Assembly: GCA_010671975.1 (NCBI GenBank)
Contig: JAAHIA010000007.1
Location: 1-46,112 of the forward strand
DNA: 46,112 bases
Origin: Leptolyngbya sp. SIO4C1
Lineage (GTDB): Bacteria > Cyanobacteriota > Cyanobacteriia > Phormidesmidales > Phormidesmidaceae
Direction of reading: 5' to 3'
Positions 1-46,112 of the stretch are shown piece by piece (position 1 is the first letter of the stretch; the number at the start of each line of letters is the position of its first letter). Under the pieces are notes generated by a model. That model was not told the DNA's origin, ran no database searches, and saw only the letters and a list, made by a program, of their open reading frames with translations. Made by a program: the position numbers and the translations under genes.

Positions 1-403
1 TGAGGGTGATCTCCATCCCCTTCAGCTTAGTAAAGTCCGACAGGCCCATCACGCCTGGCTCATGGCGCAGCATAAACATCACTTCTGGCTCTGGGCCATG
101 CAGCGCTTTCCACTCCCGCACTCTTCGCTGTAATGTTCGCAACACCTGCGGGTACTGGCCCGGGTAGTGCTCTTGTAGGTACTCGAACAGCGTCGTTGGC
201 TTCAGTCGGGGCTCACGGCGCAGCATCGGCTCTAGCTCCTGCTCCCATACCTCGGCCAAGGGATCTCGACGCACAGCGGGTTCGATAACCCTGCCTCGAT
301 TGGTGCGGTGATGGCCGGCATCGATCCGTTGACCCGTGCGCTCTGATATTTCGGCAATCGTTGACGATGCCTGCTGAGTCAATCCCAGCTCTCTGGCGTT
401 CAT
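1..403 (-). CDS. Transposase N-terminal region (HTH plus linker). The frame stays open to the window start.
   Basis: Minus-strand translation from the ATG at 403 gives MNARELGLTQQASSTIAEISERTGQ...TLFEYLQEHYPGQYPQVLRTLQRRVREWKALHGPEPEVMFMLRHEPGVMGLSDFTKLKGMEITL. This pattern resembles the N-termini of IS21-like/rve-type transposases as I recall them. It is not in the ORF track because it runs off the edge. The region upstream (404..536) is in another frame. Confidence 0.5.
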   Translation of the reverse strand, partial: MNARELGLTQQASSTIAEISERTGQRIDAGHHRTNRGRVIEPAVRRDPLAEVWEQELEPMLRREPRLKPTTLFEYLQEHYPGQYPQVLRTLQRRVREWKALHGPEPEVMFMLRHEPGVMGLSDFTKLKGMEITL

Positions 404-703
404 ATAGGCTCGCTTTTGGTATAAGTGAATGGCTTGGGGCACAGGAATTAGCTCGCTTTTCTACTAGAGCTATCTGTGCCTTTTTCTTGGCCGGGTGATA
501 AACCACCTCAGCGGATCGCCGATTGACCTGTCTCATCCGGTTTGGACTTAACCCGACTACCGCTTTGGCGTCACCCGCCTACCTTCACTGTCGCGCAATA
601 GCGTTCTATGGGTTTGAGTGGTATCTGATTCTAGAACGCTGACTCCCATCTATGCCATCTGAAATTGCCTCATAGCAACCTTTTGACCTGCTCGACCCTC
701 TAG

Positions 704-720
704 TTTTGTCAGTCAATCAG
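704..720. repeat. Terminal inverted repeat of the junction-spanning IS (TTTTGTCAGTCAATCAG).
   Basis: Perfect 17/17 reverse-complement match to 45036..45052 (CTGATTGACTGACAAAA). Confidence 0.85.
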
Positions 721-729
721 GGCCAAAGG
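721..729. repeat. 9-bp target-site duplication GGCCAAAGG. The partner copy is 45027..45035.
   Basis: The same 9-mer in the same orientation abuts both IS termini. Confidence 0.8.
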
Positions 730-749
730 TTACCGTATCGTTTAACCAT
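721..749 (-). pseudogene. 5' end of the DGR reverse transcriptase gene (codons 1 to about 9), separated from the body by the IS.
   Basis: The minus strand reads ATG GTT AAA CGA TAC GGT AAC CTT TGG CC (MVKRYGNLW). Removing the IS and one duplication copy joins this in frame to [21 protein letters not shown]... at 45026 downward. The ATG lies 2 nt after the avd stop codon. Confidence 0.8.
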
Positions 750-751
750 AG

Positions 752-1108
752 TTAGGAATTGACGATTGCCTTTTGATGCTGCTGCCGCATCCAACCACCT
801 AGCTCCTGACCAATACTATCAATTAACTGACTGACATATTGGTATCGCCGTGCTGACATCAGCTCAAATTCAAATAACAGACGAGTTTGGTGACGTAGCA
901 GATCTAATCGGCCATTCAGGGCCTTCAACCTTGGCAGCTTGTCACTGCTGTATCGAGCAAGGATCAATCCTTCGAGCAAATCGTAAAGACCAGTGATAAC
1001 GCGATCGCCGAGCAGAAACTTATGCTCGCGGGGCAGCTTATTGAGAATAGGCACGTACCACTTCACCAAATCGTAGGTTTTTTGGACGATCGGCAACTCT
1101 CGCTTCAT
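752..1108 (-). CDS. avd: DGR accessory variability determinant (Avd), a four-helix-bundle protein.
   Basis: 118 aa. It shows the typical Avd / 23S-rRNA-IVS-protein pattern (MKRELPIVQKTYDLVKWYVPILNKLPREHKFLLGDRV...IDSIGQELGGWMRQ). It sits between a VR-bearing target gene and the RT start. Confidence 0.8.
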   Translation of the reverse strand: MKRELPIVQKTYDLVKWYVPILNKLPREHKFLLGDRVITGLYDLLEGLILARYSSDKLPRLKALNGRLDLLRHQTRLLFEFELMSARRYQYVSQLIDSIGQELGGWMRQQHQKAIVNS

Positions 1109-1156
1109 CTATCTCGCAGAAAAGAACTTTCGTACTATCGCCGATAGAGCGCCAAA

Positions 1157-1182
1157 GGGCAAGAGGGCAAAAGGGCAAAGGG
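1157..1182 (+). other. Conserved four-G-tract motif directly 3' of the target-1 stop codon.
   Basis: GGGCAAGAGGGCAAAAGGGCAAAGGG on the + strand. Near-identical copies lie at 9011..9036 and 42763..42788. It is absent next to the template repeat. Confidence 0.7.
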
Positions 1183-4100
1183 CTAGTCCCTCGCGAGCCC
1201 GCACACCACCCGAAAACCGGTGTCGTTGAACCTGAAGTCGGGCGCGTCCCCGAAGCGGAACGCCGACCGGCAGAACCCAGGATCGTCGTCCCAGGAACCG
1301 CCCCGCAGTACACGACTTTTTTTGCTCTTGTCAGAGGATATCCAGGCCGAACCATCTTCCGGGGCTCCTTCATAGGTATCATGCCAGTAATCTTCGCACC
1401 ATTCCCACACATTGCCGTGCATATCATATAGACCAAAGGCGTTAGCAGGGAAACGGCCAACCACAGTTGTCTTACCGCGATATTCCCCAATGGGACCCTC
1501 TCCAAAGGCAGACTGAGCACCATAGTTTGCTAAGTCTGCGGCAATGGTTTCACCAAAGTGGAACGGAGTTGTGGTGCCCGCACGGCAGGCATATTCCCAC
1601 TCAGCTTCGGTGGGGAGTCGATAGTCTTTGCCCGTCTTGGCGGAGAGACGTCGACAAAATTCTTGCGCATCCTCCCAACTCACTTGCTCAACAGGAAGAT
1701 GGTTTCCCTCAAAGTTTGATGGGTCAGGATCTAAATTTCGTTTCGACCCCAAATCTGACTGATTGGCCCCGTGCTCAATGGCCGTCCGAAAGTTCCTCTT
1801 TTTGACTGGTATACCTAAAGCATCAGACAGCACAGACCATAACTTAGTACCAGCATCTTTCAAAGAGCTGGCTTGATATGGCACTTCCGATGCCATGCTC
1901 TGGTATGTCTGCTGGTTCCAGGATCCTTCAAGAACAATCCTTTCAATATCTCGGAGTCCTTCCGCCCGAATCGAGCGGACAGCTAAATCAGCCGCTTGAA
2001 GGGCTTCCTCAAAGGTTTGTATGGCTTTCTGGCTGGCTGCTGTTGCGATTGCTCGCCACTGGGCCTGAGTAACGGGATAGCGACTCATATAAAACGGTTG
2101 CAGCGTCACTTCGTGCTGAGGACGCTCATCGTCAGTGCTCCCTGATTCTTCCTCCGGTGCTCCCATCATGAAGGTGCCGCCAGGGATAGCCACCATCTCC
2201 AAGTTCAGATTATCGTCTGTATCCGTATCCTCTCCGAGGGACTCGATATACCCCCAAGCCTCTGCTTGACGGCGACGGATTACCCATTCCTCTGATTCGC
2301 GATCGCGCTCTAAGGTGGCCGTCTCAAACTCAAAAGCGTGTTTGAGCAGAGTAATGATGGTCGGCGATTTAAAATCAAACGGCTGCAGCGGTGGAAAGTT
2401 GAGAAACTCGGCCACTTCGTAATCAACCGTGTGGAGCGGAAAGTTATCTTCGGTAGTCTGCTGGGGCTGTCGTCGTCGCTCCGCAGGCTGCACCACGGTG
2501 GCATATCGTTGGGCCAAGGCGGCATGAGGTCCTCCCAGGCGTTGCAAGACATCAAGGCCCACCGCAGCCAACGGTAAGGCTCCCTCGCCCAGGGCATCGC
2601 CAGTCGCTTCATAGGCTGCTAAAAAAGCCTCAAAACTCTTAAGCGTATTCCCTGCTCTGTCTCTGATCAGTTGAGAGAGCCGATCTAACACTTCCAGAGG
2701 GCGGGAGATCGGCACACTATCGAGTAGCAAGTATCGAACTCGCTGGGACTGATCACCGGGATCATCATCGCCAAAAAACTGGTAGCGGCATTGCCCTTCT
2801 TCCTCCTCGTCACACCGCTGAAGCAACCCGCTAAGGAGCACCTCAGCAACATGCTCTTGCCGCGCCTCTGGCACGAATTCATCCCGCAGCAGGTCAATAA
2901 CCGGCAGGCTCACTGGAGTTGCCGCCATGTATTCTGCTAACTGCTGTGCCATTTCAGAAGCCGCAGACCGAAACAAGGCTACCCGTTGTCGAGCGGTCCG
3001 AGATCGTACCGGAGCAGTTGATTTTGCTTGATATTCCTGCGCAATTTGACGCACCGATTTAAGCTCAAACACCCGACCGGGAGTCAGCGTTCCACCACTA
3101 CCTGCAATGACCCGTGCCCACCGATGCATCGCATGAGGTTCGAGCGTCACAACAGGAACGGTCAGCAGGCGTTGCTCACCATTTGGCGTCTGACCATTGG
3201 CGGGAGTTTCATCAGCTTCATCCCACTGATCCCAGACTTCCAGATTAGGCAGCCCTTCAACTTCCAGGCGAGAACTTGGTAAGCCTGAACCCGTCGTACC
3301 CAATCGGACAATATGACCATTGCTGAGAGCCGTCCGAGTCCATAATCGTTCGGGGAACAGTTGAACAATAGAAACCGGCTGTGCTTCCGCCCAGGCCCAA
3401 AGCGTTTCGTGAATGAGGCCTCGCCACCACAGAGCCGAGGTGCAATCTGTTAGCAGTAGGATCATTCTCCGACTACTGGGATCGAGTAGCTCGCGAGGGC
3501 TATGGGGTCGCTGATACTGACAGGCTTCAGGAGGCTCTCGCCAGCGGGGAAAGAGCATGAGATCTCTGGGGCTAGCTGTTTTTAGGTCAGGCACCGATAA
3601 TCGCCAGGTGCGAATAGTTCTAAAAGCACCTTGATACTCCACTAAGTGTTGCAATTCAGCGATCGCCCGCTCCCACACTACCGTTGTTTTGGAATCTTCT
3701 ACGACCAGTTCCAGATCTAGCCACCGCTCTGGCTGAGCCTGAACTACCGGCACCCAGAGCCGAGTTTCCGCAATTTGGGTAACGGTCGCTTCTTCATCTA
3801 GTTCCTGACGGATACGGGAAGGCACTTTGCGCATCAGGGGTCGGAGCGATCGCGCCAGATCCAGCCGAGTACGCAAGGCTGGCGCAGCCGGTACCGGAAA
3901 CGGGGTTCCCGGAGGTGGCTCCTCTTCCTCTTCTTCTGTCACTGAGGAAGGTTGTGATGGTTCGTCACGGCGATCGTCAATGTAGAGATTAGCGGTTGGC
4001 GTGTCACTGGCAGTAGCGGTACCCTCGTCTACTGTTTTAAGGGGCTTGGGCTCTGCCCCTGGGTGAGGTTCAGAAATCCCATCTGAACGCGCAGATCGAT

Positions 4101-4233
4101 CTAGCTCAATAAATTGAGCTAGCCAAAACATATCGGCCAAGTCAACCGCATCGAAGTCGAGGCCGAGCTGCTGCCTCAGCTTTTGCGCTGATTGTCCGAT
4201 AGTTGGTCTTCGCTGCTGCTCAGATGCTTCCAC
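1183..4233 (-). CDS. vWA-type protein of the MoxR/protease system with a C-terminal FGE (C-type-lectin fold) domain. DGR target 1.
   Basis: 1016 aa. The N-terminus (LRQQLGLDFDAVDLADMFWLAQ) resembles the SAV_2336-type N-terminal domain found with MoxR ATPases. A central vWA-like region follows. The C-terminus has FGE motifs (RPQHEVTLQPFYMSRYPVTQAQW, RLPTEAEWEYACRAG, GLYDMHGNVWEWCED, RVLRGGSW...[11 protein letters not shown]). The gene overlaps the upstream MoxR gene by 58 nt. Confidence 0.8.
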   Translation of the reverse strand: MEASEQQRRPTIGQSAQKLRQQLGLDFDAVDLADMFWLAQFIELDRSARSDGISEPHPGAEPKPLKTVDEGTATASDTPTANLYIDDRRDEPSQPSSVTEEEEEEPPPGTPFPVPAAPALRTRLDLARSLRPLMRKVPSRIRQELDEEATVTQIAETRLWVPVVQAQPERWLDLELVVEDSKTTVVWERAIAELQHLVEYQGAFRTIRTWRLSVPDLKTASPRDLMLFPRWREPPEACQYQRPHSPRELLDPSSRRMILLLTDCTSALWWRGLIHETLWAWAEAQPVSIVQLFPERLWTRTALSNGHIVRLGTTGSGLPSSRLEVEGLPNLEVWDQWDEADETPANGQTPNGEQRLLTVPVVTLEPHAMHRWARVIAGSGGTLTPGRVFELKSVRQIAQEYQAKSTAPVRSRTARQRVALFRSAASEMAQQLAEYMAATPVSLPVIDLLRDEFVPEARQEHVAEVLLSGLLQRCDEEEEGQCRYQFFGDDDPGDQSQRVRYLLLDSVPISRPLEVLDRLSQLIRDRAGNTLKSFEAFLAAYEATGDALGEGALPLAAVGLDVLQRLGGPHAALAQRYATVVQPAERRRQPQQTTEDNFPLHTVDYEVAEFLNFPPLQPFDFKSPTIITLLKHAFEFETATLERDRESEEWVIRRRQAEAWGYIESLGEDTDTDDNLNLEMVAIPGGTFMMGAPEEESGSTDDERPQHEVTLQPFYMSRYPVTQAQWRAIATAASQKAIQTFEEALQAADLAVRSIRAEGLRDIERIVLEGSWNQQTYQSMASEVPYQASSLKDAGTKLWSVLSDALGIPVKKRNFRTAIEHGANQSDLGSKRNLDPDPSNFEGNHLPVEQVSWEDAQEFCRRLSAKTGKDYRLPTEAEWEYACRAGTTTPFHFGETIAADLANYGAQSAFGEGPIGEYRGKTTVVGRFPANAFGLYDMHGNVWEWCEDYWHDTYEGAPEDGSAWISSDKSKKSRVLRGGSWDDDPGFCRSAFRFGDAPDFRFNDTGFRVVCGLARD
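1190..1309 (-). repeat. DGR variable repeat 1 (VR1).
   Basis: 120-bp alignment to the TR at 43832..43951. I count 17 differences by hand, all at + strand T (sense-strand A) of the TR. Confidence 0.9.
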
Positions 4234-5396
4234 AGGCGGTCAATCAAGTCTCCTGGCTCACTGACTTCGGTATTGATATTAGGCTTACGCTCGCGGGTAA
4301 TCAAATAGATCGCATTCAAAAGCTGATCAGTCGCCAGATTACCTTTGCTGAAGTTCTTGTCGCGTTTACCCACAAACCGTTTAACTAAATCATTGATCTG
4401 CTTCTCAGCCCCAGCAATTAAGGCTTCCCCATTCTCTTCCTGACGGAGGTGAGCCTTCACAATCTCGGTCAGCCGCGTTTCGTCTGGCTCCCGCATGGTT
4501 AAGCGAATACAGCGACGCAAAAACGGGGGTGGAAAATCGCGCTCACCGTTACTGGTCAGAATCATGAGCGGAAACTCGGTGCAAGCAATTCGGCCTTTCT
4601 CTATCTTGGTTTTGCCGTTGACCACAACTGGTTTGTCATCGGTTGCATGATCATTTACGTCTGACGCAATTACCACTGCATCATCGTCTGTCACTGATTG
4701 TTTGTTGAACGTAAATTCTGTATCGTCTTTGTAAGCCGTGCGGACTTCGACCTCAGCCCTAACGTCTTCAATCCGCACCAATTCAGGAATCTCAAACACC
4801 CCTTCCTCAAAGACGTAGAGCAAATCATTAGGCAGGTCAATATCGCTCTTATCGATTTCATCCACAATCAGGATGCGGGGTTTTTTAGAGGGCAGAAGAG
4901 CAGTACCCAAAGGCCCTAGACGAATGTATTTGCCCATGTTGTCAAAGCGGTTTTCGCCACTGCGTTCCTTTTCCGTAGAGTCTTGAAGGCGAGCGATCGC
5001 ATCGTAAAGATATAAACCGTCTTTCAGCGTCGTTCTGGTGGTAATGGGCCAGTACAGCACCTCACCCAGATCTGGCTCCCGGGCAATAGCATAGGCCAAC
5101 GACGTTTTGCCGGTGCCCGGTTTCCCCGTCACGAGCAACGGTCGCCGCAGATATAATGCCGCATTGACTAATTCGATCTCATTGGGCTCAGCCTGAAAGG
5201 TAGCCCCTCGCTCTTGCTTACGGCGATCCGCACGCCGCCAGGTCGGGGGAGCAGGAAGCGCCGCCAGGGGAGGCGTATCACCATTATCGGCAGGAGGCGC
5301 ACCAGTGCCCTTAAAGATGGGCTGGAAGATATCCCGCTGCTTCGCTGGCTCGTCACTCATCGTTTCGTCATTCCTCTCAGCATGCCTCTTGATCAA
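4176..5396 (-). CDS. MoxR-like AAA+ ATPase.
   Basis: 406 aa. Walker A is LLVTGKPGTGKTSLAYAIA and Walker B is ILIVDEIDK. It overlaps both neighbouring genes. Confidence 0.8.
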   Translation of the reverse strand: MIKRHAERNDETMSDEPAKQRDIFQPIFKGTGAPPADNGDTPPLAALPAPPTWRRADRRKQERGATFQAEPNEIELVNAALYLRRPLLVTGKPGTGKTSLAYAIAREPDLGEVLYWPITTRTTLKDGLYLYDAIARLQDSTEKERSGENRFDNMGKYIRLGPLGTALLPSKKPRILIVDEIDKSDIDLPNDLLYVFEEGVFEIPELVRIEDVRAEVEVRTAYKDDTEFTFNKQSVTDDDAVVIASDVNDHATDDKPVVVNGKTKIEKGRIACTEFPLMILTSNGERDFPPPFLRRCIRLTMREPDETRLTEIVKAHLRQEENGEALIAGAEKQINDLVKRFVGKRDKNFSKGNLATDQLLNAIYLITRERKPNINTEVSEPGDLIDRLWKHLSSSEDQLSDNQRKS

Positions 5397-7167: not shown

Positions 7168-7225
7168 TTCAACGTAATCTCATAGGTTGCCTCACCACCC
7201 ACTTTTGTAACCACTGCACCCACTT
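7152..7225 (-). pseudogene. 3' part of a small trypsin-co-occurring (Trypco2 / CU044_2847-like) gene interrupted by IS256.
   Basis: The minus strand reads ...AVVTKVGGEATYEITLKWQHK*. It joins in frame to 8622..8880 once the IS and one copy of the 9-bp duplication are removed. Confidence 0.6.
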
Positions 7226-8621
7226 GAGCTATAACCAAAAGTGGTGTACGAGGGAGGCACAAAAAAAGGCGTATCCTTCTGGAAGAGAAAAAGACCAGAC
7301 AAAGGAATACACCATGACTCAAGATAATGTGATCGCATTCAAAACACCAGCATCCGACGAGACGTTCAGTGATGCCCTGAGCGACTTGGTGCGACAAGGC
7401 GCCCGGCAAATCATTGCTCAGGCGGTAGAAGCAGAGCTCAATGAGTTTCTAGCCCACTATCAAGGACTCAGCGACGAGCAGGGCCGCCGAGGGGTAGTGC
7501 GCAATGGCTATCTGCCCGAGCGGACAATAACGACTGGGGTTGGTGAGGTAACGGTACAAGTGCCCAAGGTGCGAGACCGCACCGGTAGCGGCATCAAGTT
7601 CAACTCAAAGCTTTTGCCGCCGTATCTCAAGCGAGCCAAAAGTGTGGAGGAAGTGCTGCCGTGGCTGTATCTCAAAGGCATCTCAGCGGGTGATTTTAGC
7701 GAAGCGCTCGCTTCACTGCTTGGACCTCAGGCCAAAGGGCTCTCGGCCTCAACGATAGGACGACTGAAGGCGAAGTGGCAGCAAGAGCATCAGCAGTGGC
7801 AAAAACGCTCGCTTTTGGACAAGCGCTATGTCTATGTCTGGGCAGACGGCATCTACTTCAACATCCGCGATGATGAACGGCAGTGCATACTGGTGCTCAT
7901 TGGGGTCACCGATAGCGGTCACAAAGAACTGCTGGGCATCGAAGCAGGCTACCGAGAGTCAGCGTTGAGCTGGCAGTCGTTGCTGTTGCGACTCAAAGAC
8001 CAAGGACTGGCGCATGATCCACAGTTAGCCATCGGAGACGGTGCTTTGGGCTTTTGGAAAGCCCTGTCGCAGGTGTTTCCCACAACCAAAGTGCAGCGCT
8101 GCTGGGTGCATAAGACGGCGAATGTGCTCAACAAACTGCCCAAGCGTCAGCAACCCAAAGCCAAGTCAGCCTTGTGGGAAATCTATCGAGCTGAGACCAA
8201 GAGCGAAGCTAATCAAGCCTTCAACCGCTTTGTTCAGACTTATCAAGCCAAGTATCCAGAAGCGGCTGATTGTTTGGCTAAGGACCGAGATGCCCTGCTG
8301 GCGTTTTACGACTTTCCGGCGCAGCATTGGAAGCATATTCGCTCGACCAATCCAATTGAATCGACCTTTGCCACAGTTCGATTGCGCACTGATAAGACCC
8401 GAGGCTGCGTCTCCCAAGCGACGATCCTATCGCTAGTGTTCAAGCTAGTTGAGAGTGCTCAGCAGCGCTGGTTGCGGATTCGGGGCTTTCAGCATCTAGC
8501 CGAGGTGATTGAAGGTGTCTCATTCAAAGATGGTATTCGAGCTGAGGAGACTGATACTGATTTAGACCCGTTGCAGAAGGTCGCCTGATGATGCTAGATA
8601 CACCACATTTGACAATAACTC
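7226..8621 (+). mobile_element. IS256-family insertion sequence.
   Basis: Imperfect terminal inverted repeats: GAGCTATAACCAAAAGTGGTGTA at 7226.. against the reverse complement of the right end, GAGTTATTGTCAAATGTGGTGTA. A 9-bp direct duplication CACCCACTT lies at 7217..7225 and 8622..8630. Confidence 0.8.
7314..8588 (+). CDS. IS256-family (mutator-type) transposase.
   Basis: The N-terminus MTQDNVIAFKTP...ARQIIAQAVEAELNEFL is typical of IS256 transposases. Other landmarks are WADGIYFNIR, IGDGALGFWKAL, QRCWVHKTANVLNKLPK and STNPIESTFATVRLR. The ORF-track start at 7158 is an upstream extension across the IS end. Confidence 0.85.
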   Translation: MTQDNVIAFKTPASDETFSDALSDLVRQGARQIIAQAVEAELNEFLAHYQGLSDEQGRRGVVRNGYLPERTITTGVGEVTVQVPKVRDRTGSGIKFNSKLLPPYLKRAKSVEEVLPWLYLKGISAGDFSEALASLLGPQAKGLSASTIGRLKAKWQQEHQQWQKRSLLDKRYVYVWADGIYFNIRDDERQCILVLIGVTDSGHKELLGIEAGYRESALSWQSLLLRLKDQGLAHDPQLAIGDGALGFWKALSQVFPTTKVQRCWVHKTANVLNKLPKRQQPKAKSALWEIYRAETKSEANQAFNRFVQTYQAKYPEAADCLAKDRDALLAFYDFPAQHWKHIRSTNPIESTFATVRLRTDKTRGCVSQATILSLVFKLVESAQQRWLRIRGFQHLAEVIEGVSFKDGIRAEETDTDLDPLQKVA

Positions 8622-8880
8622 CACCCACTTCGCCGCTGAGCTTGACACTAAATTTCACTTCCACCTCGTCAGCGGGCTGAGTCATGGCATCCACGCGATC
8701 ACGAATGCTCTCGACCATCGGTTTCAAGTTATCAAGGGCCTGGTCAAACGTTTGCTTCGCTTGAGCCGCAATTTCCCCTGGGCGCTTGGAAACAGGCTTC
8801 ACTGCATCCGACTGCACATCCTCAACCTCGATCAGCACCGACTGACCGTTGCCCACATCAAATTCAACAAGTCTTGTCAT
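8622..8880 (-). pseudogene. 5' part of the small trypsin-co-occurring gene interrupted by IS256.
   Basis: MTRLVEFDVGNGQSVLIEVEDV...EVEVKFSVKLSGEVG, then the IS end. The pattern matches small proteins found upstream of trypsin/MoxR/vWA operons (recall-level). Confidence 0.55.
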
Positions 8881-9036: not shown

Positions 9037-9825
9037 CTAGTCTCTCGCGAGCCCGCACACCACCCGAAAACCGGAGTCGCTGACCCCGAGGCCGGGCGCG
9101 CCCCTGAGGCGGTCCGCCGACCGGCAGAACTCAGGATTGAGGTTCCAGGAACCGCCCCGCAGTACACGACTATTTTCGCTCTCATCAGAGGATATCCAGG
9201 CGGTGCCATCTTCCGGGGCTCCTGCGTAGGTCTTATGCCAGTGGTCTTCGCACCATTCCCATACGTTGCTGTGCATGTCATGAAGGCCCCAACGGTTGGC
9301 CGGATAATGTCCTACTTCCGACGTCTGGTTCATCGTGCCACGATAATTGGCCAGCTCTGCCGTCAGCCTGTCGCCAAAATGATAGGCCGTTTGCGTTCCC
9401 GCACGACAGGCATATTCCCACTGGGCCTCACTGGGTAAGCTATACGCTTTGCCAGTTTTGGCAGCGAGCCGCCGACAGAACTCTGTAGCGTCTTCCCAAC
9501 TCACCTGCTCTACCGGCAAGACATCTCCCTTAAAGCGAGAAGGGGCCGGATCAAGATCTTTGCCGATACGGTCATAGCCTGCAACGATACGCCACTGGAC
9601 CTGAGTCACTGGATAGCGCCCCATCAGAAACGATGGCACCGTGACTCGATGCTGAGGTTGCTCACTACTATGGCTATTAGGCTCATCTTTCAAAGTCCCC
9701 ATCCTAAATTCCCCGGCGGGGATGAGCATCAGCGTCAGAGAAACATCCTCACTCAGAGCTTCGGTGTAAGCCTTGTTCAGACACCGATAGCGATGCAGAG
9801 TCAGAGCCTTGGAAACCGTCGCCAT
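9037..9825 (-). CDS. Stand-alone FGE / C-type-lectin-fold protein. DGR target 2.
   Basis: 262 aa. Motifs include QPQHRVTVPSFLMGRYPVTQVQW, SLPSEAQWEYACRAG, GLHDMHSNVWEWCED and RVLRGGSW...[11 protein letters not shown]. It lies directly upstream of the protease operon on the same strand. Confidence 0.85.
   Translation of the reverse strand: MATVSKALTLHRYRCLNKAYTEALSEDVSLTLMLIPAGEFRMGTLKDEPNSHSSEQPQHRVTVPSFLMGRYPVTQVQWRIVAGYDRIGKDLDPAPSRFKGDVLPVEQVSWEDATEFCRRLAAKTGKAYSLPSEAQWEYACRAGTQTAYHFGDRLTAELANYRGTMNQTSEVGHYPANRWGLHDMHSNVWEWCEDHWHKTYAGAPEDGTAWISSDESENSRVLRGGSWNLNPEFCRSADRLRGAPGLGVSDSGFRVVCGLARD
9044..9163 (-). repeat. DGR variable repeat 2 (VR2).
   Basis: 120-bp alignment to the TR. I count 18 differences by hand, all at TR adenine positions. 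Confidence 0.9.
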
Positions 9826-13730: not shown

Positions 13731-14036
13731 TTGCCCACTCAAGATAAAACAATGAAGCAGCTAGAACTTAACCCCAAGCCCGACATATTAAACGCCTGTG
13801 CCTGGGCACGGCTACCCCATCGCGGCGCTGGTATCGTGCTAGCAGTACCAAAACCGCTACCGCTAGGGCTAGCTCCGTGGCTGCGATCGCAAGGCTGGCA
13901 ACTAGCAGGTTACGCAGAAGATCGAGGACAAGCAGCGGTCTGGCTCATCGGTGGTGTAGAAGCTGACCTACTCGGCTGGCTACCTCGGCCACGCAGCGAA
14001 GGCAGTCGCACAGCGGGGAATCTGCTGCCCTGGTAG
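13731..14036 (+). CDS. Hypothetical protein. Coding status uncertain.
   Basis: A 101-aa ORF (alternative ATG at 13752). Its 3' end runs into the roughly 560-bp repeat R1. No family recognised. Confidence 0.25.
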   Translation: MPTQDKTMKQLELNPKPDILNACAWARLPHRGAGIVLAVPKPLPLGLAPWLRSQGWQLAGYAEDRGQAAVWLIGGVEADLLGWLPRPRSEGSRTAGNLLPW

Positions 14037-14580
14037 GCTTGCCCTAGTCGGACAGCGGACGGGCGAAACCGCCCGAGCACCGCACGCCGCACGGCCACAT
14101 CGAACCACGGTAGGCAGGGTCACGCTGTCAAGGCCGTAGCGCAGCGGAGAGCGAAGCGTGCCTTGATCAGTGGGGCCGCCGTGGTAGCCTTTCTTGGCAG
14201 TGGCACGAAGGGCGCAGGGCGGCCAGCAAAAAAACGGGCAACCCCTTGATCGTGCGGGAAGGGTGGCTTAGTGGCTCATTAAAAAAGCGCCCAACCATAC
14301 AATGCGGAGCGCAGCGGAGCCAACATAAAAAGGGCAACCCTAGCTGATCAAGCCACTAAGCCACCCTGGACGCACAAACAATAAGCGCCCAACCACTCAA
14401 TCTTTCGCCCTTTGTCTTTCAGCATCGGGTAGTTCGCGCTTCGGGATCGAGAGCGTTTATGTGGGGTGCGATCGTGAAGCGGATATGATGCCAAACAAAC
14501 TAAACGGACACTCACATGTTGGCTGTAAGTGTGCTGTCTTGATTGTGTGGAGTGACGCGCCATTAGCATGACTGGAGCGA
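14019..14580 (+). repeat. Copy 1 (R1) of a roughly 560-bp non-coding direct repeat.
   Basis: Aligns with 22287..22845. I estimate identity above 90 percent over the first 450 bp or so, decaying after that. It has internal periodic motifs and a 16-nt inverted repeat (14262..14277 and 14351..14366, approximate). Confidence 0.8.
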
Positions 14581-16683: not shown

Positions 16684-17439
16684 ATGAATATGTCTGCCTT
16701 GAGCCAAAACATTTTTATGAAATTAGGAATCGTAAGCTCCCTAATTTTAAGTAGCAGCAATGCAGTAGCCGCAAATCAAATCCAAGTGTGGACACCTAAT
16801 TTTGGTTACGAAGCTGGAAGTTGGCGCGTCAGCCAGCACATTCGTACCTTAGCCGATGTGAACGGTGACGGGAAAGACGATATCGTTGGTTTCGGCAATT
16901 CTGGGACGTTTGTCTCCTTATCAACGGGGTCTGGGTTTACTTCTCCTCAGAAGTGGGTCAATGACTTTGGTCGTAATGAGGACGCTGGTTCTTGGAATTT
17001 AGACCAGCACATTCGTACCTTAGCCGATGTGAACGGTGACGGGAAAGACGATATCGTTGGTTTCGGCAATTCTGGGACGTTTGTCTCCTTATCAACGGGG
17101 TCTAGGTTTACTTCTCCTCAGAAGTGGGTCAATAACTTTGGTCGTAATGAGGACGCTGGTTCTTGGAATTTAGACCAGCACATTCGTACCTTAGCTGATG
17201 TGAACGGTGATGGGAAAGACGACATCGTTGGTTTCGGTAATGCCGGGACGTTTATCTCCCTATCGACAGGCACTGAGTTTGTTTCACCTCAGATGTGGAT
17301 CAATAACTTTGGTCGCAATGAGGACGCTGGTTCTTGGAATTTAGACCGGCACATTCGTACCTTAGCCGATGTGAACGGTGATGGGAAAGACGACATCGTT
17401 GGTTTCGGCAATGCCGGAGTTTTTGTTACCACCAGATAA
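16684..17439 (+). CDS. Secreted FG-GAP/VCBS-like repeat protein.
   Basis: A signal-peptide-like N-terminus is followed by four 57-aa repeats containing ADVNGDGKDDIVGFGN. Confidence 0.7.
   Translation: MNMSALSQNIFMKLGIVSSLILSSSNAVAANQIQVWTPNFGYEAGSWRVSQHIRTLADVNGDGKDDIVGFGNSGTFVSLSTGSGFTSPQKWVNDFGRNEDAGSWNLDQHIRTLADVNGDGKDDIVGFGNSGTFVSLSTGSRFTSPQKWVNNFGRNEDAGSWNLDQHIRTLADVNGDGKDDIVGFGNAGTFISLSTGTEFVSPQMWINNFGRNEDAGSWNLDRHIRTLADVNGDGKDDIVGFGNAGVFVTTR
16834..17439 (+). repeat. Tandem 171-bp coding repeats (about 3.5 units).
   Basis: Units start at 16834, 17005, 17176 and 17347 and are nearly identical at the nucleotide level. Confidence 0.85.
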
Positions 17440-18451: not shown

Positions 18452-19024
18452 TTAAGTATCGCTGCCTATACGCCGCTGCCTTAAGGCATTTGTAGTTTGC
18501 AATTCAGCTTGTAACTCGGCCTGGTAGAGCATGACCGCTCGCTGTTGACCTCGCGCTACAGCCGCTTTCAAGTCTGCTTGCGATAGATTTTCCTCAGCGG
18601 CATTGACCTGATCGATTAGGCTTTCAAGGCTCTGGAGCTGCTGGGCAACGGCTAACTCAATATCCGTAGTTTGACTCTGACGTAGAGCCAGGACGCTGCC
18701 GACCTCTTCGGGCATCAACTCACCCTCAATGACGCCAGCACTAGACCACTCTTGTGAATAACGGGCTCTTGCATCGGTCACCCATGCGTCGCGATCGCAA
18801 GTCTCGACTTGAGCGAACTCGTCGAACAGAGAGCGAGCCAGGTCGGTGTAACCCTGCTTGGTTTTCAGCAGAGGCTCGGGGGCAACTTTCCTAAGCCAGC
18901 TAAACCAGCGATTTCGGATGGTGCTATCGCTAACGTTGTACGCCTGAGCGATAGCCTGTGCGGTATGGTGTCCGCCTGTGTGCGCCGATACGTTCGGTAG
19001 CACGTTCGGTTGTGTGCTATGCAT
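18452..19024 (-). CDS. Module A gene 1: HTH plus coiled-coil protein.
   Basis: 190 aa and paralogous to 26109..26690. The C-terminal 110 aa or so are nearly identical (EWS/AGAGVIEGELMPEEVG...QAELQAELQTTNALRQRR). The N-terminus has an HTH-like segment (TAQAIAQAYNVSDSTIRNRWFSWL). Confidence 0.5.
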   Translation of the reverse strand: MHSTQPNVLPNVSAHTGGHHTAQAIAQAYNVSDSTIRNRWFSWLRKVAPEPLLKTKQGYTDLARSLFDEFAQVETCDRDAWVTDARARYSQEWSSAGVIEGELMPEEVGSVLALRQSQTTDIELAVAQQLQSLESLIDQVNAAEENLSQADLKAAVARGQQRAVMLYQAELQAELQTTNALRQRRIGSDT

Positions 19025-22255: not shown

Positions 22256-22286
22256 GCCGCAACAACATCCTTACCTCACAGCCAGA

Positions 22287-22845
22287 AATCTGCTGCCCTG
22301 GTAGGCTTGCCCTAGTCAGACAGCGGAAGGGCGAAACCGCCCGAGCACCGCACGCCGCACGGCCACATCGAACCACGGTAGGCAGGGTCACGCTGTCAAG
22401 GCCGCAGCGTAGCGGAAAGCGAAGCGTGCCTTGATCAGTGGGGCCGCCGTGGTAGCCTTTCTCGGCAGTGGCACGAAGGGCGCAGGGCGGCCAACAAAAA
22501 ACGGGCAACCCCTTGATCGTGCGGGAAGGATGGTTTAGTGGCTCACTAAAAAGCGCCCAACCACACAATGCGGAGCGCAGCGGAGCCAATGTAAAAGGGC
22601 AACCTCAGCTGATCAAGCCACTATGCCAGCCTGGACGCACAAACTAACAAACGCCCAACCACTCAATCTTTCACCCTTTGTCTTTCAGCATCGGGTAGTT
22701 CGCGCTTCGGGGGCGAGGGTGTTTCTGTGGAGTGCGATTGCTGAGCGTATGCAAAGCCAAATAAACAGGCAAAACTAGACCGTCTGTAAGTGTGCGACAC
22801 TAGCTCGTTTGTATGGAGTGACATAACACCAGCACGGCTGGAGCC
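22287..22845 (+). repeat. Copy 2 (R2) of the roughly 560-bp non-coding direct repeat.
   Basis: Aligns with 14019..14580. Confidence 0.8.
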
Positions 22846-26108: not shown

Positions 26109-26690
26109 TCAAGGCTCTACCTCATTGCCTCCCATGCGTCTTTGTCTTAGGGCATTTGTAGTTTGCAGCTCAGCCTGTAACTCTGCTTGATAAAGCATCA
26201 CCGCTCGCTGCTGACCTCGGGCTACGGCAGCTTTCAGATCCGCTTGCGATAGATTTCCCTCAGCGGCATTAACCTGGTCGATTAAACCTTCAAGGCTCTG
26301 GAGCTGCTGAGCGACGGCTAGCTCGATATCTGTGGTTTGCGTTTGACGCAGCGCTAGGACATTACCGACTTCCTCGGGCATTAACTCACCTTCAATCACC
26401 CCGGCACCGGCCCACTCCTGAGAGTAGCGAGATTTAGCATCGAGCACCCACTGCTTGCGATCGCGTTTCTCAACTTGAGCAAATTCATCAAACAACGTGC
26501 GGGCCAGCTCGGAATAACCCCGCTCATCCTTCAGTAGACCGGCGGGGGCGACCTGATTGATCCAATCAAACCAGCGCGTTCGCACAGTTGACTCAGCTAC
26601 ATTGTGCGTCTGTGCGATCTGCTGTGCGGAGTAGTGCACGGCTACGTGCGCTCGGATGTCCGCTAAGGTGCGCGGATCTGTACTATTCAT
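26109..26690 (-). CDS. Module B gene 1: HTH plus coiled-coil protein (paralog of 18452..19024).
   Basis: 193 aa. See module A. Confidence 0.5.
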   Translation of the reverse strand: MNSTDPRTLADIRAHVAVHYSAQQIAQTHNVAESTVRTRWFDWINQVAPAGLLKDERGYSELARTLFDEFAQVEKRDRKQWVLDAKSRYSQEWAGAGVIEGELMPEEVGNVLALRQTQTTDIELAVAQQLQSLEGLIDQVNAAEGNLSQADLKAAVARGQQRAVMLYQAELQAELQTTNALRQRRMGGNEVEP

Positions 26691-26794: not shown

Positions 26795-27056
26795 CCATTA
26801 TCGATTAATCAATTACTCAGCTAACCGCTTAATCGATTAATCAGAATGTTATAATGCTTTCATAGCGATAGTTACAGCTCTCATTTTTATTTCTAAATTT
26901 TGATTAATCGGCAAATCGATTAATCGCTTAAGCAATTGAGTGAGCGCGCTTTGTATGGCTTGCCTGCTGTTAAATAGCTCTGCCAGAGCAGAGTCGCAGT
27001 CAATTCGCGACTACCTACCCATCTATTTCGATTAACTGCTTAATTGCTTAATCAGC
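26795..27056. promoter_or_regulatory. Cluster of CGATTAATC / TTAATCGATTAA palindromic motifs, a candidate partition site or operator.
   Basis: Copies at about 26802, 26834 and 26917, with degenerate copies at 26901 and 27027..27055. The cluster lies directly downstream of the par operon. Confidence 0.5.
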
Positions 27057-27320
27057 TATCCATTTTTCTAGAAGCTCAGTTATCAGGTCGCTGAAATCTC
27101 CGCTATGCCTGACCAGCTTAATCTTGACCTCCTCATTCAAAGCCTTCGGAATGTAGGCCCCGACCTGAATGTAATTAGGATCTGATCGCTTACCTGTCTT
27201 CTTACGTTTTTTCGAAGATGATGCAGTAGATTCTGCTGCCTTTTTCAGGTCTGGCTGCTGTTCGTACGACTCAGCCAGATTACTGAACATATCAGCCACA
27301 TCCTTTTTAACCTTAGCCAT
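27048..27320 (-). CDS. Small RHH centromere-binding protein (ParG-like, putative).
   Basis: 90 aa, overlapping the parA stop. The C-terminus YIPKALNEEVKIKLVRHSGDFSDLITELLEKWI is RHH-like. Confidence 0.5.
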   Translation of the reverse strand: MAKVKKDVADMFSNLAESYEQQPDLKKAAESTASSSKKRKKTGKRSDPNYIQVGAYIPKALNEEVKIKLVRHSGDFSDLITELLEKWIAD

Positions 27321-27909
27321 AGGTTTCTAGCTCCTTCCCAAGCGCTTGATATTCACCCCAGGCGATGCGGCCAAACCGATCGCCAGACTCATAGACCGGC
27401 ACTCCCTGTAGAGCCGCCTTCTCATAGGCAGTCAATCGCCTGATTTGCTGCTTGACCACTGTAACGTTTAAGCGCTTAAGCGTTGCTCTAGCGGCATCAG
27501 CAGTTGCCTTTTTTCGACTATCTACCATTGTCAGCAGCACTGCATAATCGCTTAACTGATTAAGCATTTTGACGGTTCCTAGCAGTGCTTCAAGGGCTAA
27601 GGCATCCGGCGTTGTCGGCAGCAGCAGTAAGTCACAGCCCGAGGCGAGTTCTTCGAGCTGGTTATGGTCTGGATGAGCTTCGGTATCAATAATGATGTGG
27701 TCTTTCCCGCGAGACGCTTTAGCGGCACCCATTAAGTCACAAACGGCAAACGGTAGGTTTCCTCGCTTGCTCCAGTTCAAGCTAGAGCGGTTGGGGTCGC
27801 CATCCACTAGCAGCGTATCCGGCGACGATTGGGCGAAGTAGCAGGCCAAATGTACGGCTGTAGTCGTCTTTCCCACGCCTCCCTTGAACCCCGCAATAGT
27901 AATGATCAT
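27313..27909 (-). CDS. parA: ParA-family partition ATPase (small type).
   Basis: The deviant Walker A is MIITIAGFKGGVGKTTTAVHLA. The 198-aa length is typical of small plasmid ParA proteins. Confidence 0.85.
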   Translation of the reverse strand: MIITIAGFKGGVGKTTTAVHLACYFAQSSPDTLLVDGDPNRSSLNWSKRGNLPFAVCDLMGAAKASRGKDHIIIDTEAHPDHNQLEELASGCDLLLLPTTPDALALEALLGTVKMLNQLSDYAVLLTMVDSRKKATADAARATLKRLNVTVVKQQIRRLTAYEKAALQGVPVYESGDRFGRIAWGEYQALGKELETYG

Positions 27910-27989: not shown

Positions 27990-28025
27990 TGGTCGATTAT
28001 CTGGTTAATCGCTTAATCGATTGGG
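27990..28025. promoter_or_regulatory. Second set of TTAATCG motifs upstream of parA.
   Basis: GGTCGATTATCTGGTTAATCGCTTAATCGATTGG has the same motif family as 26795..27056. Confidence 0.45.
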
Positions 28026-38660: not shown

Positions 38661-39691
38661 TATAGCTATTTTAGAGCGGATGAGGTACACATAGGTAGTG
38701 TTTCGCATGCTCCTTGCACCAGCCGATGAAGCCCTACTCGCTGGACCTCAGACAGAAAATCGTTGACGCCTACGACCGAGGTGATATCTCCCAGCGTCAG
38801 CTGGCTCAGCAGTTCAACGTCGCCAAAAGCTTCGTTCAAAAACTGCTCAAGCAGCGCCGCGAAACTGGCTCGATTGCTCCTAAGCTTCGCACACAGCAAA
38901 CACCGCCAAAGCTGAACGCTGAGCACCGAGCGGTACTGGCAGAACTGGTTGAGAGCCAAAACGATGCCACGCTAGAGGAACTGCGAGCGCGTCTGCATGC
39001 TCGAACCGGTATCTTGGTGAGCGTCGCAACCGTTCACAACACCTTGAAACGCATGCGGTTAAGCGTCAAAAAAAACGCTACATCCGGATGCCAAAGCGAC
39101 TGACAGAGTTCAGCAGGCGCGAGTCGAGTTCTGGCAAATGGTTCGAAGCCTGTTGGCAAAAGACTTAGTCTTTATCGATGAATCGGGGGTGAACTTAGCG
39201 ATGATGCGTCTTCAGGCACGGTCTTTGAAGGGCACCAGGGCTCATGGCAGTAGACCCAACAAACGCGGGAAAAATGTATCGATTATTGGGGCGCTGAGTC
39301 TGAGGGGTGTGGTTGCAAGCTATGGCTTAATAGGCGCAACTGATGGACTGACCTTCGAAGCCTTCATCTCTCAGAAGTTAGTGCCCAAGCTATGGAAAGG
39401 CGCTTGCGTACTGATGGATAATTGCTCTGTGCATCTGGGTGAGACCGTGCGTGAGCTGATTGAAGCCGTGGGGGCTCGGCTGATCTATCTACCGCCATAC
39501 TCGCCTGATTTTTCACCCATCGAGAATTGCTGGTCCAAACTCAAGAGCATTCTAAGGACGATTGGAGCCAGAACTTACCCTGACTTGGCTATAGCTATCG
39601 AGAAGGCTTTTGCTCAAGTCTCGCTTGATGATATTCAGGCCTGGTTCACACACTGCTGTTACTGTGCCTCACCAGACTAAAAACCGCTATA
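38661..39691 (+). mobile_element. IS630-family insertion sequence.
   Basis: The terminal repeats are TATAGCTATTTTAG on the left and the reverse complement of the right end, TATAGCGGTTTTTAG. Both ends carry TA. The transposase lies inside. Confidence 0.7.
38726..39680 (+). CDS. IS630-family transposase in two frames joined at an A8 slippery run.
   Basis: Frame 1 is MKPYSLDLRQKIVDAY...RMRLSVKK. A -1 shift at A8 (39068..39075) continues as TLHPDAKATDRVQQARVEFW...VFIDESG...YLPPYSPDFSPIENCWSKLK (DDE). Confidence 0.75.
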
Positions 39692-42663: not shown

Positions 42664-42762
42664 CGTAGGCTATTGCGACAGCTATCGATTTGTTTGAACG
42701 ACACCAGTCAAATTTCACTACCGCCAATATAGTTTACTTGTACTATCAAACGATCCGCTAAA

Positions 42763-42788
42763 GGGATAGAGGGCAAAAGGGCAAAGGG
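42763..42788 (+). other. Conserved four-G-tract motif directly 3' of the target-3 stop codon.
   Basis: GGGATAGAGGGCAAAAGGGCAAAGGG. Confidence 0.7.
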
Positions 42789-43664
<876 letters not shown>

Positions 43665-43831
43665 ACATCAGCAGATAGGGGGGTGGGTTGAGCAATCGTT
43701 CAGCTGAGCTTACCAGGCTACTCAACCCTGTTTTCTATTTGGATGCTGTCACCAGCATCACCGGAGCTAAGCTGGACTCCCCTTCGCACGCCCGACAGAT
43801 TCCCATCTGCCAGCTCTGGCCCAGAAGAGTA

Positions 43832-43951
43832 CTCGCGAGCCCGCACACCACCCGAAAACCGGTGTTGTTGTTCCTGTTGTCGGGCGCGTTCCTGTTGCGG
43901 TTCGCCGACCGGCAGTTCTCAGGATTGTTGTTCCAGGAACCGCCCCGCAGT
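43832..43951 (-). repeat. DGR template repeat (TR).
   Basis: It lies 20 nt downstream of the RT stop. The sense strand encodes an Asn(AAC)-rich version of the VR peptide ([37 protein letters not shown]). There are 29 sense-strand adenines by my count. Confidence 0.9.
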
Positions 43952-43970
43952 CGGGTTGCCCGCCCCGTCT

Positions 43971-45035
43971 TCACTGTCTCGAAAACACGAGATCAGCAAA
44001 TAGCTTTTGGCGCAATCGCCAGGTGTCAGCATGGTCAAGATGGGCCAGCCAGCTTTGCATTGACCGATCCAACTCTTGAAACCCTATTTTACCGCTAGCA
44101 TAGTCAGCCTGCAGCTGTTTGAGTCGGCGTCTGGCTCGACGCAGGTTTTCGCTACGCACGCGGATACACACATCCTTTGAGCAGCCTTCACCTTTTGGCA
44201 GTATCCGAAATCCCAAAAAGTTAGCACCATGACGAGTCTCAAAGAGTTGGCTTTTGACAGGGTGGACCTTGAGCCGTAGCCCGACCAGGTAATCTTCCAG
44301 GGCAGTGCGGGCCTTAGCCAGAAATCCTTGATCGTCACTAAATAAGGCGAAGTCATCCACATATCGAACGTACTTTTTTACCTGGAGCTGCTCTTTCACA
44401 AAGTGATCGAAGCCGTTGAGGTAAACATTAGCAAAGAACTGACTGGTAAGATTGCCAATCGGCAACCCCCGTCGCCGTTCTAACATCGTCAGCAAATCGT
44501 CTCCTGGAAATAGCTCATGGACTGGAATCTGCTCATTGCTGTGGTCAATGATGCAGTCAATCAGCCAAAGCGTATCCGGGCATTTAATCTTGCGCCGCAC
44601 GATCGCTTTGAGAATGGTCAGGTCAATGCTAGGAAATATTTTTGGATATCGCACTGCAGCACATAGGGCGTGGTGCGCATAAATTGAATGAGCCGCTGTA
44701 GCGCCCGGTGGGTGCCATAACCAATACGATTGGCATAGGAGTCATCAATAAAGGTGCGCTCGAAAATGGGCTGAATGATATTGCAAAGGGCATGGTGGAC
44801 GACACGATCGCGATAGGGAGCCGCAGAAATCATCCGTAGTTTAGGATCGTAGATTTCAAAGGTGGTATAGCCTCCAGGCTTATACGTTTTATGAGTAAGC
44901 TCGGCCTGAAGAGCTAACAGCGCTGACTCCAGACTGTAGTTGAATCGCAAGACACTTGCCTGCATCCGTTTGCCCCGCTGGGCATTGCGAGCCGCCAGGA
45001 GCAGGTTCTCAAAGTGAATGACCTGAGGCCAAAGG
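43971..45035 (-). pseudogene. DGR reverse transcriptase body, with its 5' end removed by the IS and a 1-nt frameshift.
   Basis: [21 protein letters not shown]..., [41 protein letters not shown] (DGR-type motif) and [11 protein letters not shown]. The frame breaks at about 44632..44633 (QKYF then PSID needs one more C). Confidence 0.85.
45027..45035. repeat. 9-bp target-site duplication GGCCAAAGG (partner copy 721..729).
   Basis: See 721..729. Confidence 0.8.
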
Positions 45036-45052
45036 CTGATTGACTGACAAAA
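45036..45052. repeat. Terminal inverted repeat of the junction-spanning IS (CTGATTGACTGACAAAA).
   Basis: Reverse complement of 704..720. Confidence 0.85.
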
Positions 45053-45053
45053 G

Positions 45054-46112
45054 TTATTCAGGCGCGTATGAGTACGTTAGTACTCTGAACTCCAGACGAT
45101 AGGCTCGTTTCTCGTGTTGTTTGCGCGAGGCCATCGCCGGGTCAGGGTCACGATTGGTTGTGAAGCTAACCTTGCGGACAATGCGCCAGCCTTGCACAGC
45201 AGCAGCCTTGAGCCAGTCCCAGCCAATGCGAAAGTAGCTGCTACCGCGAAACCAGTGGGCATCGACCCAGCGACGCTGATGCTCAGCGACAACCTGAGTG
45301 CCCTGAGCGGTGACAAACAGGGTTGCCAGCGCCAGAATGAACCAGAGTCTAGACAGCGCACAGACCGAACGAATCTGCGACTTTTGCAGATTCCACCCGC
45401 TGGATTGGTCGTCTCGGAAATTCTGCTCAATGTCGAACCTCAAAGCGTACTCACAGAAGGTCTGCAGCGTGGTCGGCTGATCGCTGACAATCGCCCAGAA
45501 CTCGCCGTTGAGGTTGTTGCGCCCGAAGGCGATGTGGACCGGGCCGTAGCATTGCCCTTTGTGGATGCGAACGTTGTGAAAGCACAGCGCTTCCCCACGC
45601 TTGAAGTGAATGTCCTTGAGCTGTGACCATCCCTTGCCAGCACGCCATATCCAGGTGTTCTTCTTCAACCGGATACGATAGTGCCAGCCCCACTGCTGGC
45701 TGAGGGCTCGCATCAAGTCTGTGTGCACAAAGCCTCGGTCAGCCAAGAGCACTACCTTGAGACCCACTGGCAAGCACTCGGCGGCTTGGTGCAAGAGCGC
45801 TTCGTACTCAGCAAAAGCCACCGCCGCGCTGCTATGGTGCAGCACCCGCCAAGCCACTGGCAAGGCACGACCGCGATGGACCACCGCCACCCGTATCAGG
45901 CAGTACTCGTCCCAGAATAGTGAAGTATCCAAGCTCAAGAAGAGGCACTCGTCTTGCCATTCGCTGATGGCAGCCTGTATCAGCGGCTTGTATAGCTTGT
46001 GGACATTGATGCGAGCATTGTTGAGCCAGCGCTGTACCCGCCTTTGCTTGCTTTGAGCGTAGCGACCTCGACTGGGTAGATAGGGCACCCAGCGAGTGAG
46101 GTTCACTTCTCC
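45054..46112 (-). CDS. IS4-superfamily DDE transposase, catalytic part. The frame stays open to the window end.
   Basis: [30 protein letters not shown] and [16 protein letters not shown] give D, D and E/K landmarks of IS4-like (DDE_Tnp_1) enzymes. [16 protein letters not shown] resembles cyanobacterial IS4-family N-terminal regions. Confidence 0.75.

Follow-up and report, generated by a model that had tools for sequence, protein, structure and literature searches.

Cyanobacterial DGRs which diversify CLec sensors tied to MoxR ATPases, VMAP, Trypco adaptors and trypsin-like peptidases have been described, as have DGRs carried on cyanobacterial plasmids and DGR loci which are shaped by transposons or degraded (PMC7517822; PMC10907252). 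We have analysed a locus of this type in a window of 46,112 nucleotides which corresponds to a whole contig. The window is likely to represent an incomplete, plasmid-like circle of ~48 kb carrying a canonical DGR, in which the reverse transcriptase (RT) gene is split by an IS4-family element holding a nested IS21-family element and the assembly is broken at this point. The case is one of ordinary IS-mediated decay of a known DGR type.

The arrangement of the undisturbed locus is observed in six related metagenome contigs (L006-L011), where genes occur in the order FGE-sulfatase (262 aa), Trypco1, trypsin-VMAP (597 aa), AAA_5 ATPase, FGE-sulfatase target (1018 aa), bAvd (118 aa), RT (361 aa) and FGE-sulfatase (290 aa). 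In the window, an IS256-family element interrupts the Trypco1 gene and the DGR is represented by the following features:

752..1108, minus strand: avd accessory gene, 118 aa (Pfam bAvd, 1.7e-19), syntenic with bAvd of L006-L009
730..749, minus strand: RT start, comprising the ATG and codons 2-7 (MVKRYGN), located 2 nt past the avd stop
43971..45026, minus strand: remainder of the DGR RT, with a 1-nt deletion near 44644
43832..43951, minus strand: TR, downstream of RT
1190..1309, minus strand: VR1, 17 mismatches to TR, 3' end of a 1016-aa FGE-sulfatase/CLec gene (1183-4233; Pfam FGE-sulfatase, 5e-63)
9044..9163, minus strand: VR2, 18 mismatches to TR, in a 262-aa FGE-sulfatase gene (9037-9825), a remote target
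42796..42915, minus strand: VR3, 13 mismatches to TR, in a 291-aa FGE-sulfatase gene (42789-43664; Pfam FGE-sulfatase, 3e-59)

The TR/VR pair displays the adenine pattern, as all mismatches (48/48) occur at TR adenines, of which there are 29 positions, and 0 occur at other bases. Each VR forms the 3' end of an FGE-sulfatase/CLec gene; the VR2 target has the domain type of the other two targets and matches phrog_18508. The window contains the RT, the Avd and the TR/VR adenine pattern of a DGR but not an intact, expressible RT.

RT identity is apparent when the gene is repaired by taking the IS out and putting one base back. The resulting RT comprises 361 aa, carries the DGR-typical motifs IGNLTSQ and YVDD and matches intact 360-361-aa homologs over its full length, the best being the 361-aa P0241, to which it is 94% identical over 100% of the length. 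The homologs carry Pfam RVT_1 and are encoded adjacent to bAvd genes and FGE-sulfatase targets. The base which must be restored lies where the window reads AAATATTTCCTAGC and five relatives read AAATATTTTCCCACC, a difference which breaks the frame between DIQKYF and PSID. As the deletion is located in a T4C3 run, it could be a sequencing error. An earlier reading of this DNA, referred to here as the first-pass annotation, had overlooked both this deletion and the two-family origin of the sequence between the repeats described below. With the 1-nt deletion on top of the IS split, the DGR is unable to mutagenise and, since neither Avd nor any of the three target ORFs is shortened with respect to the relatives, the state observed is that of a disabled DGR with frozen VRs. 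It is unlikely that the RT knock-out, which leaves Avd, TR and the three diversified targets intact, represents a selected 'lock', freezing favourable VR alleles of a plasmid-borne antigen-sensor or conflict system, as opposed to neutral decay. If it did, IS insertion in DGR RTs would constitute a natural off-switch in IS-rich cyanobacteria.

The sequences which interrupt the RT gene occupy both ends of the window, bordered by a short direct repeat:

721..729, no strand: copy of the target-site duplication, GGCCAAAGG, next to the RT start, corresponding to RT codons 8-10
601..720, minus strand: IS4-family element, left 120 bp, comprising IRL (704-720) and the beginning of the leader
1..600, minus strand: IS21-family element, first 600 bp, nested in the IS4 leader, IRL TATTGCGCGACAGTGAAGGTAGGCGGGTGACGCC from 600, cut by the contig end
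45036..46112, minus strand: IS4-family element, right part, IRR at 45036-45052, cut by the contig end
45027..45035, no strand: copy of the target-site duplication, GGCCAAAGG, next to the RT body, present as a single copy in the L006 empty site

The outer boundaries of the insertion are defined by exact 17-bp inverted repeats, CTGATTGACTGACAAAA being present at 45036-45052 on the plus strand and at 704-720 on the minus strand with 17/17 nt identical. These inverted copies, which had been reported in the first-pass annotation, are the sole two matches in the window, also when up to 2 mismatches are tolerated (chance expectation, 0.02). Identity of the repeats ends at 17-18 bp. The 9-mer GGCCAAAGG, also reported in that annotation, indeed borders both inverted repeats externally, at 45027-45035 and 721-729. 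It is found 3 times in the window against an expectation of 0.36, the third copy, at 7730, being unrelated. In silico excision of 45036-46112 together with 1-729 restores the RT start MVKRYGNLWPQV, generating the joint ATGGTTAAACGATACGGTAACCTTTGGCCTCAGGTC (as halves, ATGGTTAAACGATACGGTAAC and CTTTGGCCTCAGGTC) which encodes an uninterrupted RT N-terminus of 30 residues. The restored RT ATG is positioned 2 nt past the stop of the bAvd gene, as had been proposed, a spacing identical to that between avd and RT in L006.

The RT gene is uninterrupted in all six related contigs (L006-L011), each of which encodes P0241 and provides the empty site. In DNA alignments, L006 5866-9746 corresponds to window 4598..723 and L006 9737-12018 corresponds to window 45038..42755, the two alignments sharing 10 nt of L006 which span the 9-bp duplicated target. 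The L006 locus is thus a classical empty site and independent proof of the insertion, and it places the two ends of the window next to each other in the ancestral arrangement. The data support a split of the RT after codon 7 by a transposable element which has 17-bp terminal inverted repeats and has duplicated 9 bp of target. The repeats, the duplication and the empty site likewise bear out the earlier proposal that an IS has cut the RT off from its start codon, the ~351 codons which remain being parted from the ATG and from avd upstream of it.

The larger part of the interrupting sequence belongs to an IS4-family element. Transposase codons 9-360 are read from 46112 to 45057, followed by the stop codon at 45054-45056. 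The protein is detected by Pfam DDE_Tnp_1 (2.1e-9; 37.8 bits against a cut-off of 23) and by NCBIfam transpos_IS4_2 (1e-41; profile positions 16-317 of 340), the 143 bits obtained for the latter falling slightly short of the 152-bit cut-off owing to truncation of the protein by the contig end. More than 1,100 transposase homologs were found, the closest being the 359-aa P0001 with 81% aa identity. Close homologs are mostly 359-360 aa long and begin MV(V)ALIQ(T/S)GEVNLTRW; the window protein begins GEVNLTRW, precisely at the contig end. Intact copies of the element are 1325-1329 bp in length and encode a 360-aa transposase (L003 7215-8539; L032-L034). These copies end in CTG[A/G]TTGACTGACAAAA, matching the termini in the window, and comparison of other IS4-family copies for their termini indicated the same terminal repeats in L001, L003 and L032-L034. 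An independent copy in L033 is flanked by a clean 9-bp duplication, GGGAAAAAG. No target duplication is visible around the L003 copy, probably because of rearrangement. Transposase type, shared terminal repeats and a fixed 9-bp duplication all place the element in the IS4 family.

With respect to the 1329-bp L033 reference copy, window 46112..45036 aligns to nt 252-1329. On the other side, window 647-600 aligns to nt 83-132 of the same reference (86%) and to L001 72-119 (92%), with IS4 homology of the left part ending at 600/601. IS4 nt 133-251 of the L033 reference, about 119 bp, are absent from the window. Exact-match scans returned 0 matches for a conserved IS4 leader 26-mer in the genome contig collection and 0 for an IS4 end 24-mer in the metagenome contig collection, yielding no further copy of this particular IS4 variant.

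The remaining 600 bp derive from an IS21-family element. IstA codons 1-134 are read from 403 to 2, with the ATG at 403 behind a leader of ~200 nt. NCBIfam transpos_IS21 (NF033546) detects this peptide at 4.9e-19 over profile positions 4-127 of 294, the 69 bits obtained being below the 160-bit cut-off because just 134 IstA residues are present. The IS21 part of the window exhibits 78.5% nt identity to nt 3-605 of a 2808-bp element of Leptolyngbya sp. PCC 7375. This element is present in that genome in at least 12 copies which are at least 99.9% identical. Its ends are TGTT...AACA, it is flanked by 6-7-bp duplications, and it encodes IstA (574 aa) and IstB (271 aa). Reference sequence past nt 605 (to 2808) is found nowhere in the window.

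Assignment to the IS21 family is based on IstA and on a shared, defined left terminus. The terminus was set with the copies in L002, L003 and PCC 7375, the DNA of the Acaryochloris and NIES-3755 homologs being too divergent. In 13 loci IS21 homology begins at window 598-600, with upstream flanks that vary by context, and the boundary at window 600 is also observed in L002 and in both L003 copies. Full-length IstA relatives are 574-581 aa long, with IstB located downstream in L004, L005 and the PCC 7375 element. Leptolyngbya NIES-3755 encodes a 581-aa IstA plus IstB, and on Acaryochloris plasmids the homolog adjoins a gene annotated as ISAcma26-family IstB. The L003 locus also contains both element types: an IS4 copy lies inside an IS21 istA gene, and a second IS21 copy lies inside the first, inserted 14 nt beyond the point corresponding to window position 1.

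The composition of the contig ends has consequences for how they are joined. In the first-pass annotation, one IS of ~1.8 kb had been taken to span the junction, with position 46112 followed by position 1. Joining the ends produces 1797 bp between the repeats, but this sequence contains no single transposase ORF. It consists of two truncated minus-strand transposase genes in different frames, one half matching IS21 and the other IS4. The contig ends are of two-family composition, and a single 1.8-kb IS across the junction is rejected on the basis of these two truncated transposases. The IS4 and IS21 homologies each reach the final base of their respective contig end, and IS4 nt 133-251 and IS21 nt 606-2808, the missing segments as measured against intact reference copies, are absent from a window which is the whole contig. 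This switch of IS family at the contig ends argues that position 46112 is most likely not followed by position 1. A comparison of the contig ends revealed no terminal overlap.

A complete closed circle, with 46112 joined directly to 1 and a single IS making up the 1797 bp from one inverted repeat to the other, is nevertheless distinctly unlikely. The same inverted repeats and target duplication would bracket both ends in such a circle, as they do here, but its halves would have to derive from different IS families in different reading frames. Intact references are 1325-1329 bp (IS4) and 2808 bp (IS21), with no intact IS of 1.8 kb among them, and for an arbitrary linearisation a family switch exactly at the contig ends would be a coincidence of roughly 1 in 46,000; the lack of terminal overlap also stands against closure. 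Such a circle is viable only in the form of a dead chimeric remnant, produced by deletion from nested IstA codon 134 to IS4 codon 8. Such a deletion joint is not forbidden by the sequence, and the IS-rich L003 locus is heavily rearranged and involves the same two element types.

On the simplest reading, the IS21 element is nested in the IS4 leader and the assembly broke within these repeats; homology reaching both ends is what a break of this kind would give. Most likely ~2.3 kb is absent between 46112 and 1, comprising ~2.2 kb of IS21 and ~119 bp of IS4, as estimated from the intact reference copies. In this nested-gap reading the complete insertion would be ~4.1 kb and the replicon ~48.4 kb. 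The right end of the contig falls ~119 bp short of the expected IS21 right terminus, which is not predicted by a simple break at the element boundary. Further rearrangement is therefore possible, for example through a deletion next to IS21 or through one more nested insertion. An exact-match scan of the metagenome contig collection for the IS4/IS21 junction returned 0 matches and thus gave no second copy from which to read across the gap. Heavy rearrangement appears to be common for the same two element types in the IS-rich L003 locus.

The position of the insertion also has a bearing on replicon topology. Both contig ends derive from one insertion event, which indicates a circularly permuted sequence and, most likely, a circle. 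Indeed, in the relatives target, avd, RT, TR and target form a single block which bridges the ends of the window, and RT halves and duplication copies at opposite contig ends fit a circle or, formally, a tandem repeat. We infer a circular topology, for which good support comes from the division of the RT between the ends, from the target duplication they have in common and from synteny. Of the earlier description of the contig as a complete circular replicon linearised in an IS, circularity thus stands by inference and completeness does not, as roughly 2.3 kb is most likely missing.

The backbone looks like that of a plasmid. The 198-aa ParA has its best tblastn matches on cyanobacterial plasmids of 16-86 kb, with 75% aa identity to that of a 44.5-kb Leptolyngbya sp. 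BL0902 plasmid, and iteron-like repeats are located close to the ParA gene. Other backbone genes encode a small tyrosine recombinase, an S24 repressor, Rad52, Uma2, PIN and TumE toxins and an HNH protein. No near-identical plasmid was found in PLSDB, and GC skew gave no usable origin or terminus signal. The best explanation for the host is a filamentous (Leptolyngbya-like) cyanobacterium. A phage origin was considered and rejected, as no phage structural or terminase genes were matched in PHROGs and the matches obtained were only FGE-sulfatase look-alikes, an ATPase and the HNH protein.

That the window is instead a non-circular segment, whether chromosomal, a tandem duplication unit or an assembly chimera bounded by copies of the same insertion, is very unlikely. 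No replication initiator (Rep) was recognised among the ORFs scanned, the DGR island of the relatives resides on short contigs, and synteny with the relatives stops outside an island of ~10 kb, all of which would fit such a segment. Against this, the RT halves and both copies of one 9-bp duplication fit a single insertion event and together rebuild a block which is contiguous in six related contigs, and, barring a tandem repeat, a linear chromosome with one insertion cannot yield the RT 5' part at the start and the 3' part at the end. The plasmid-like character of the backbone genes also argues against a non-circular segment.

Insertion of IS4-type elements with a 9-bp duplication and the nesting of IS elements are textbook behaviour. 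For the nearly complete circle with a nested insertion, the sequence of events was probably as follows. An IS4-family element of ~1.33 kb entered RT codons 8-10 by DDE cut-and-paste transposition, duplicating 9 bp (GGCCAAAGG) and parting the RT start codon and upstream signals from the remaining gene. An IS21-family element, whose intact relatives are 2.8 kb and encode IstA and IstB, would then have interrupted the IS4 leader at nt 120/121, the order of the two insertions being the presumed one. The assembler would have been unable to cross the nested repeats, with the result that the contig would start 600 bp inside IS21 and end at IS4 transposase codon 9. The gap would hold IstA from codon 135 (...NG.PFEHLIYHYRLAYSGW...), IstB and the IS21 right end (...CATCTAACA-like). 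Beyond these would lie (A)GAACGC, repeated over 6-7 bp, and then the IS4 leader (~119 bp) and ATGGTNGCNCTNATHCARAC, up to 46112. The IS4 share of the gap would consist of the ~119-bp leader plus the first 8 transposase codons. The 1-nt RT deletion would add a second lesion, with the three VRs left frozen in intact ORFs.

The main value of these observations concerns annotation and assembly, and current understanding of DGRs and insertion sequences is unchanged. The contig is best handled as a circular replicon of ~48 kb, complete except for a nested-IS gap of ~2.3 kb, and not as a closed circle of 46,112 bp, and its DGR is best annotated as disabled, with three frozen VRs. With the empty site preserved in relatives, the locus offers a clean example of IS elements dismantling a DGR-linked MoxR/VMAP sensor locus, and for two cyanobacterial IS types it defines the termini as well as the target duplications. 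The IS ends, the target duplication, the empty site, the origin of the contig ends from two IS families and the restriction of VR changes to TR adenines are direct observations.

Compared with cyanobacterial IS4-family elements of the transpos_IS4_2 type, the window element is alike in its ~360-aa DDE_Tnp_1 transposase, its 9-bp duplication, an intact size of ~1.33 kb and 17-18-bp terminal inverted repeats, CTG[A/G]TTGACTGACAAAAG, and its relatives occur in Adonisia, Moorena, Synechocystis pSYSM and Acaryochloris plasmids. The window copy differs in that its leader is interrupted by another IS and nt ~133-251 are not in the assembly. The IS21 part resembles the ISAcma26-type element of PCC 7375 at the left terminus (32/34 nt alike) and ISAcma26-type relatives, which include those on Acaryochloris marina plasmids, in its ~200-nt leader and in an IstA N-terminus which is 72-86% identical. 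It differs in having the terminus TATT where PCC 7375 has TGTT, and in that the window holds nt 1-600 only, before IstB and the right terminus.

The DGR itself is similar to the MoxR-VMAP-linked DGRs of cyanobacteria (Vallota-Eastman et al. 2020, PMC7517822; Dore et al. 2024, PMC10907252) in possessing Avd, RT, TR and adenine-specific C-terminal FGE-sulfatase VRs, and in being neighboured by a Trypco1 adaptor, a trypsin-VMAP protein and an AAA_5 (MoxR-like) ATPase. It differs from these systems in that the RT is frameshifted and split by a nested IS pair and Trypco1 is split by an IS256-family element. Thus, in comparison with its closest known counterparts, the cassette is a decaying copy of a locus which is intact in related populations.

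The Trypco1 adaptor gene homolog in the window is broken by an IS256-family element, which is bordered on both sides by a 9-bp duplication.

7226-8621: IS256-family element, 1396 bp (Transposase_mut, 1.3e-75)
7217-7225 and 8622-8630: 9-bp duplication AAGTGGGTG bordering this element

The adaptor gene is intact at 3053-3376 in L006, a related metagenome contig with an uninterrupted DGR locus. Interruption of the Trypco1 homolog by the IS256-family element thus inactivates a further component of the DGR-linked conflict locus, the second to be lost. The DGR reverse transcriptase gene itself has lost 1 nt from a T/C run at window position ~44644 on the minus strand, the site reading AAATATTTCCTAGC in the window versus AAATATTTTCCCACC in five relatives, and the deletion shifts the reading frame at DIQKYF|PSID. 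This deletion represents either a genuine second lesion in the gene or a homopolymer sequencing error.

Insertion sequences are unusually abundant on the replicon. An IS630-family element, split in two ORFs, is the fourth IS type observed. Other repeats and a plasmid-type ParA gene, with repeats on both sides, are also present.

38714-39680: IS630-family element, HTH_Tnp_IS630 ORF (129 aa) and DDE_3 ORF (180 aa)
14009-14500 and 22277-22766: direct repeat pair, ~490 bp, 84-95% identical
16810-17426: 171-nt repeat in three tandem copies (85-93% identical), within the gene for a 251-aa FG-GAP repeat protein
27313-27909: ParA gene, plasmid-type
26809-26929 and 27993-28022: iteron-like or centromere-like repeats of the TCGATTAATCGCTTAATCGATT type

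The replicon's partition region, or its origin, is probably located at the ParA gene and its flanking repeats. The ~490-bp direct repeats are composed of A-rich modules, are spaced 8.27 kb apart and contain a 31-nt hairpin (arms 14246-14276 and 14351-14381); they could be the borders of a mobile or recombining 8-kb segment. A 300-nt stretch is common to 18458-18757 and 26124-26423 with 81% identity, and the 190-aa and 193-aa ORFs in which it lies are probably a pair of paralogs carried by one replicon.

In L032 and L034, contigs carrying intact IS4-family copies, an additional IS4 right terminal repeat is observed at ~1971-1988, ~286 bp 3' of the complete 1329-bp element and separated from it by a 99-aa ORF. 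This repeat could represent either a solo end or a MITE-like remnant. In another cyanobacterial MAG, the IS4 and IS21 types of the window are nested in each other (L003, 5841-8539), the IS21 istA gene containing an IS4 copy at 7215-8539 and a second IS21 copy being inserted in the first at approximately IstA codon 139. This insertion point, which may be a self-targeting hotspot, lies just 14 nt past the site homologous to window position 1, and such a hotspot could be the reason that the contig ends at this position.
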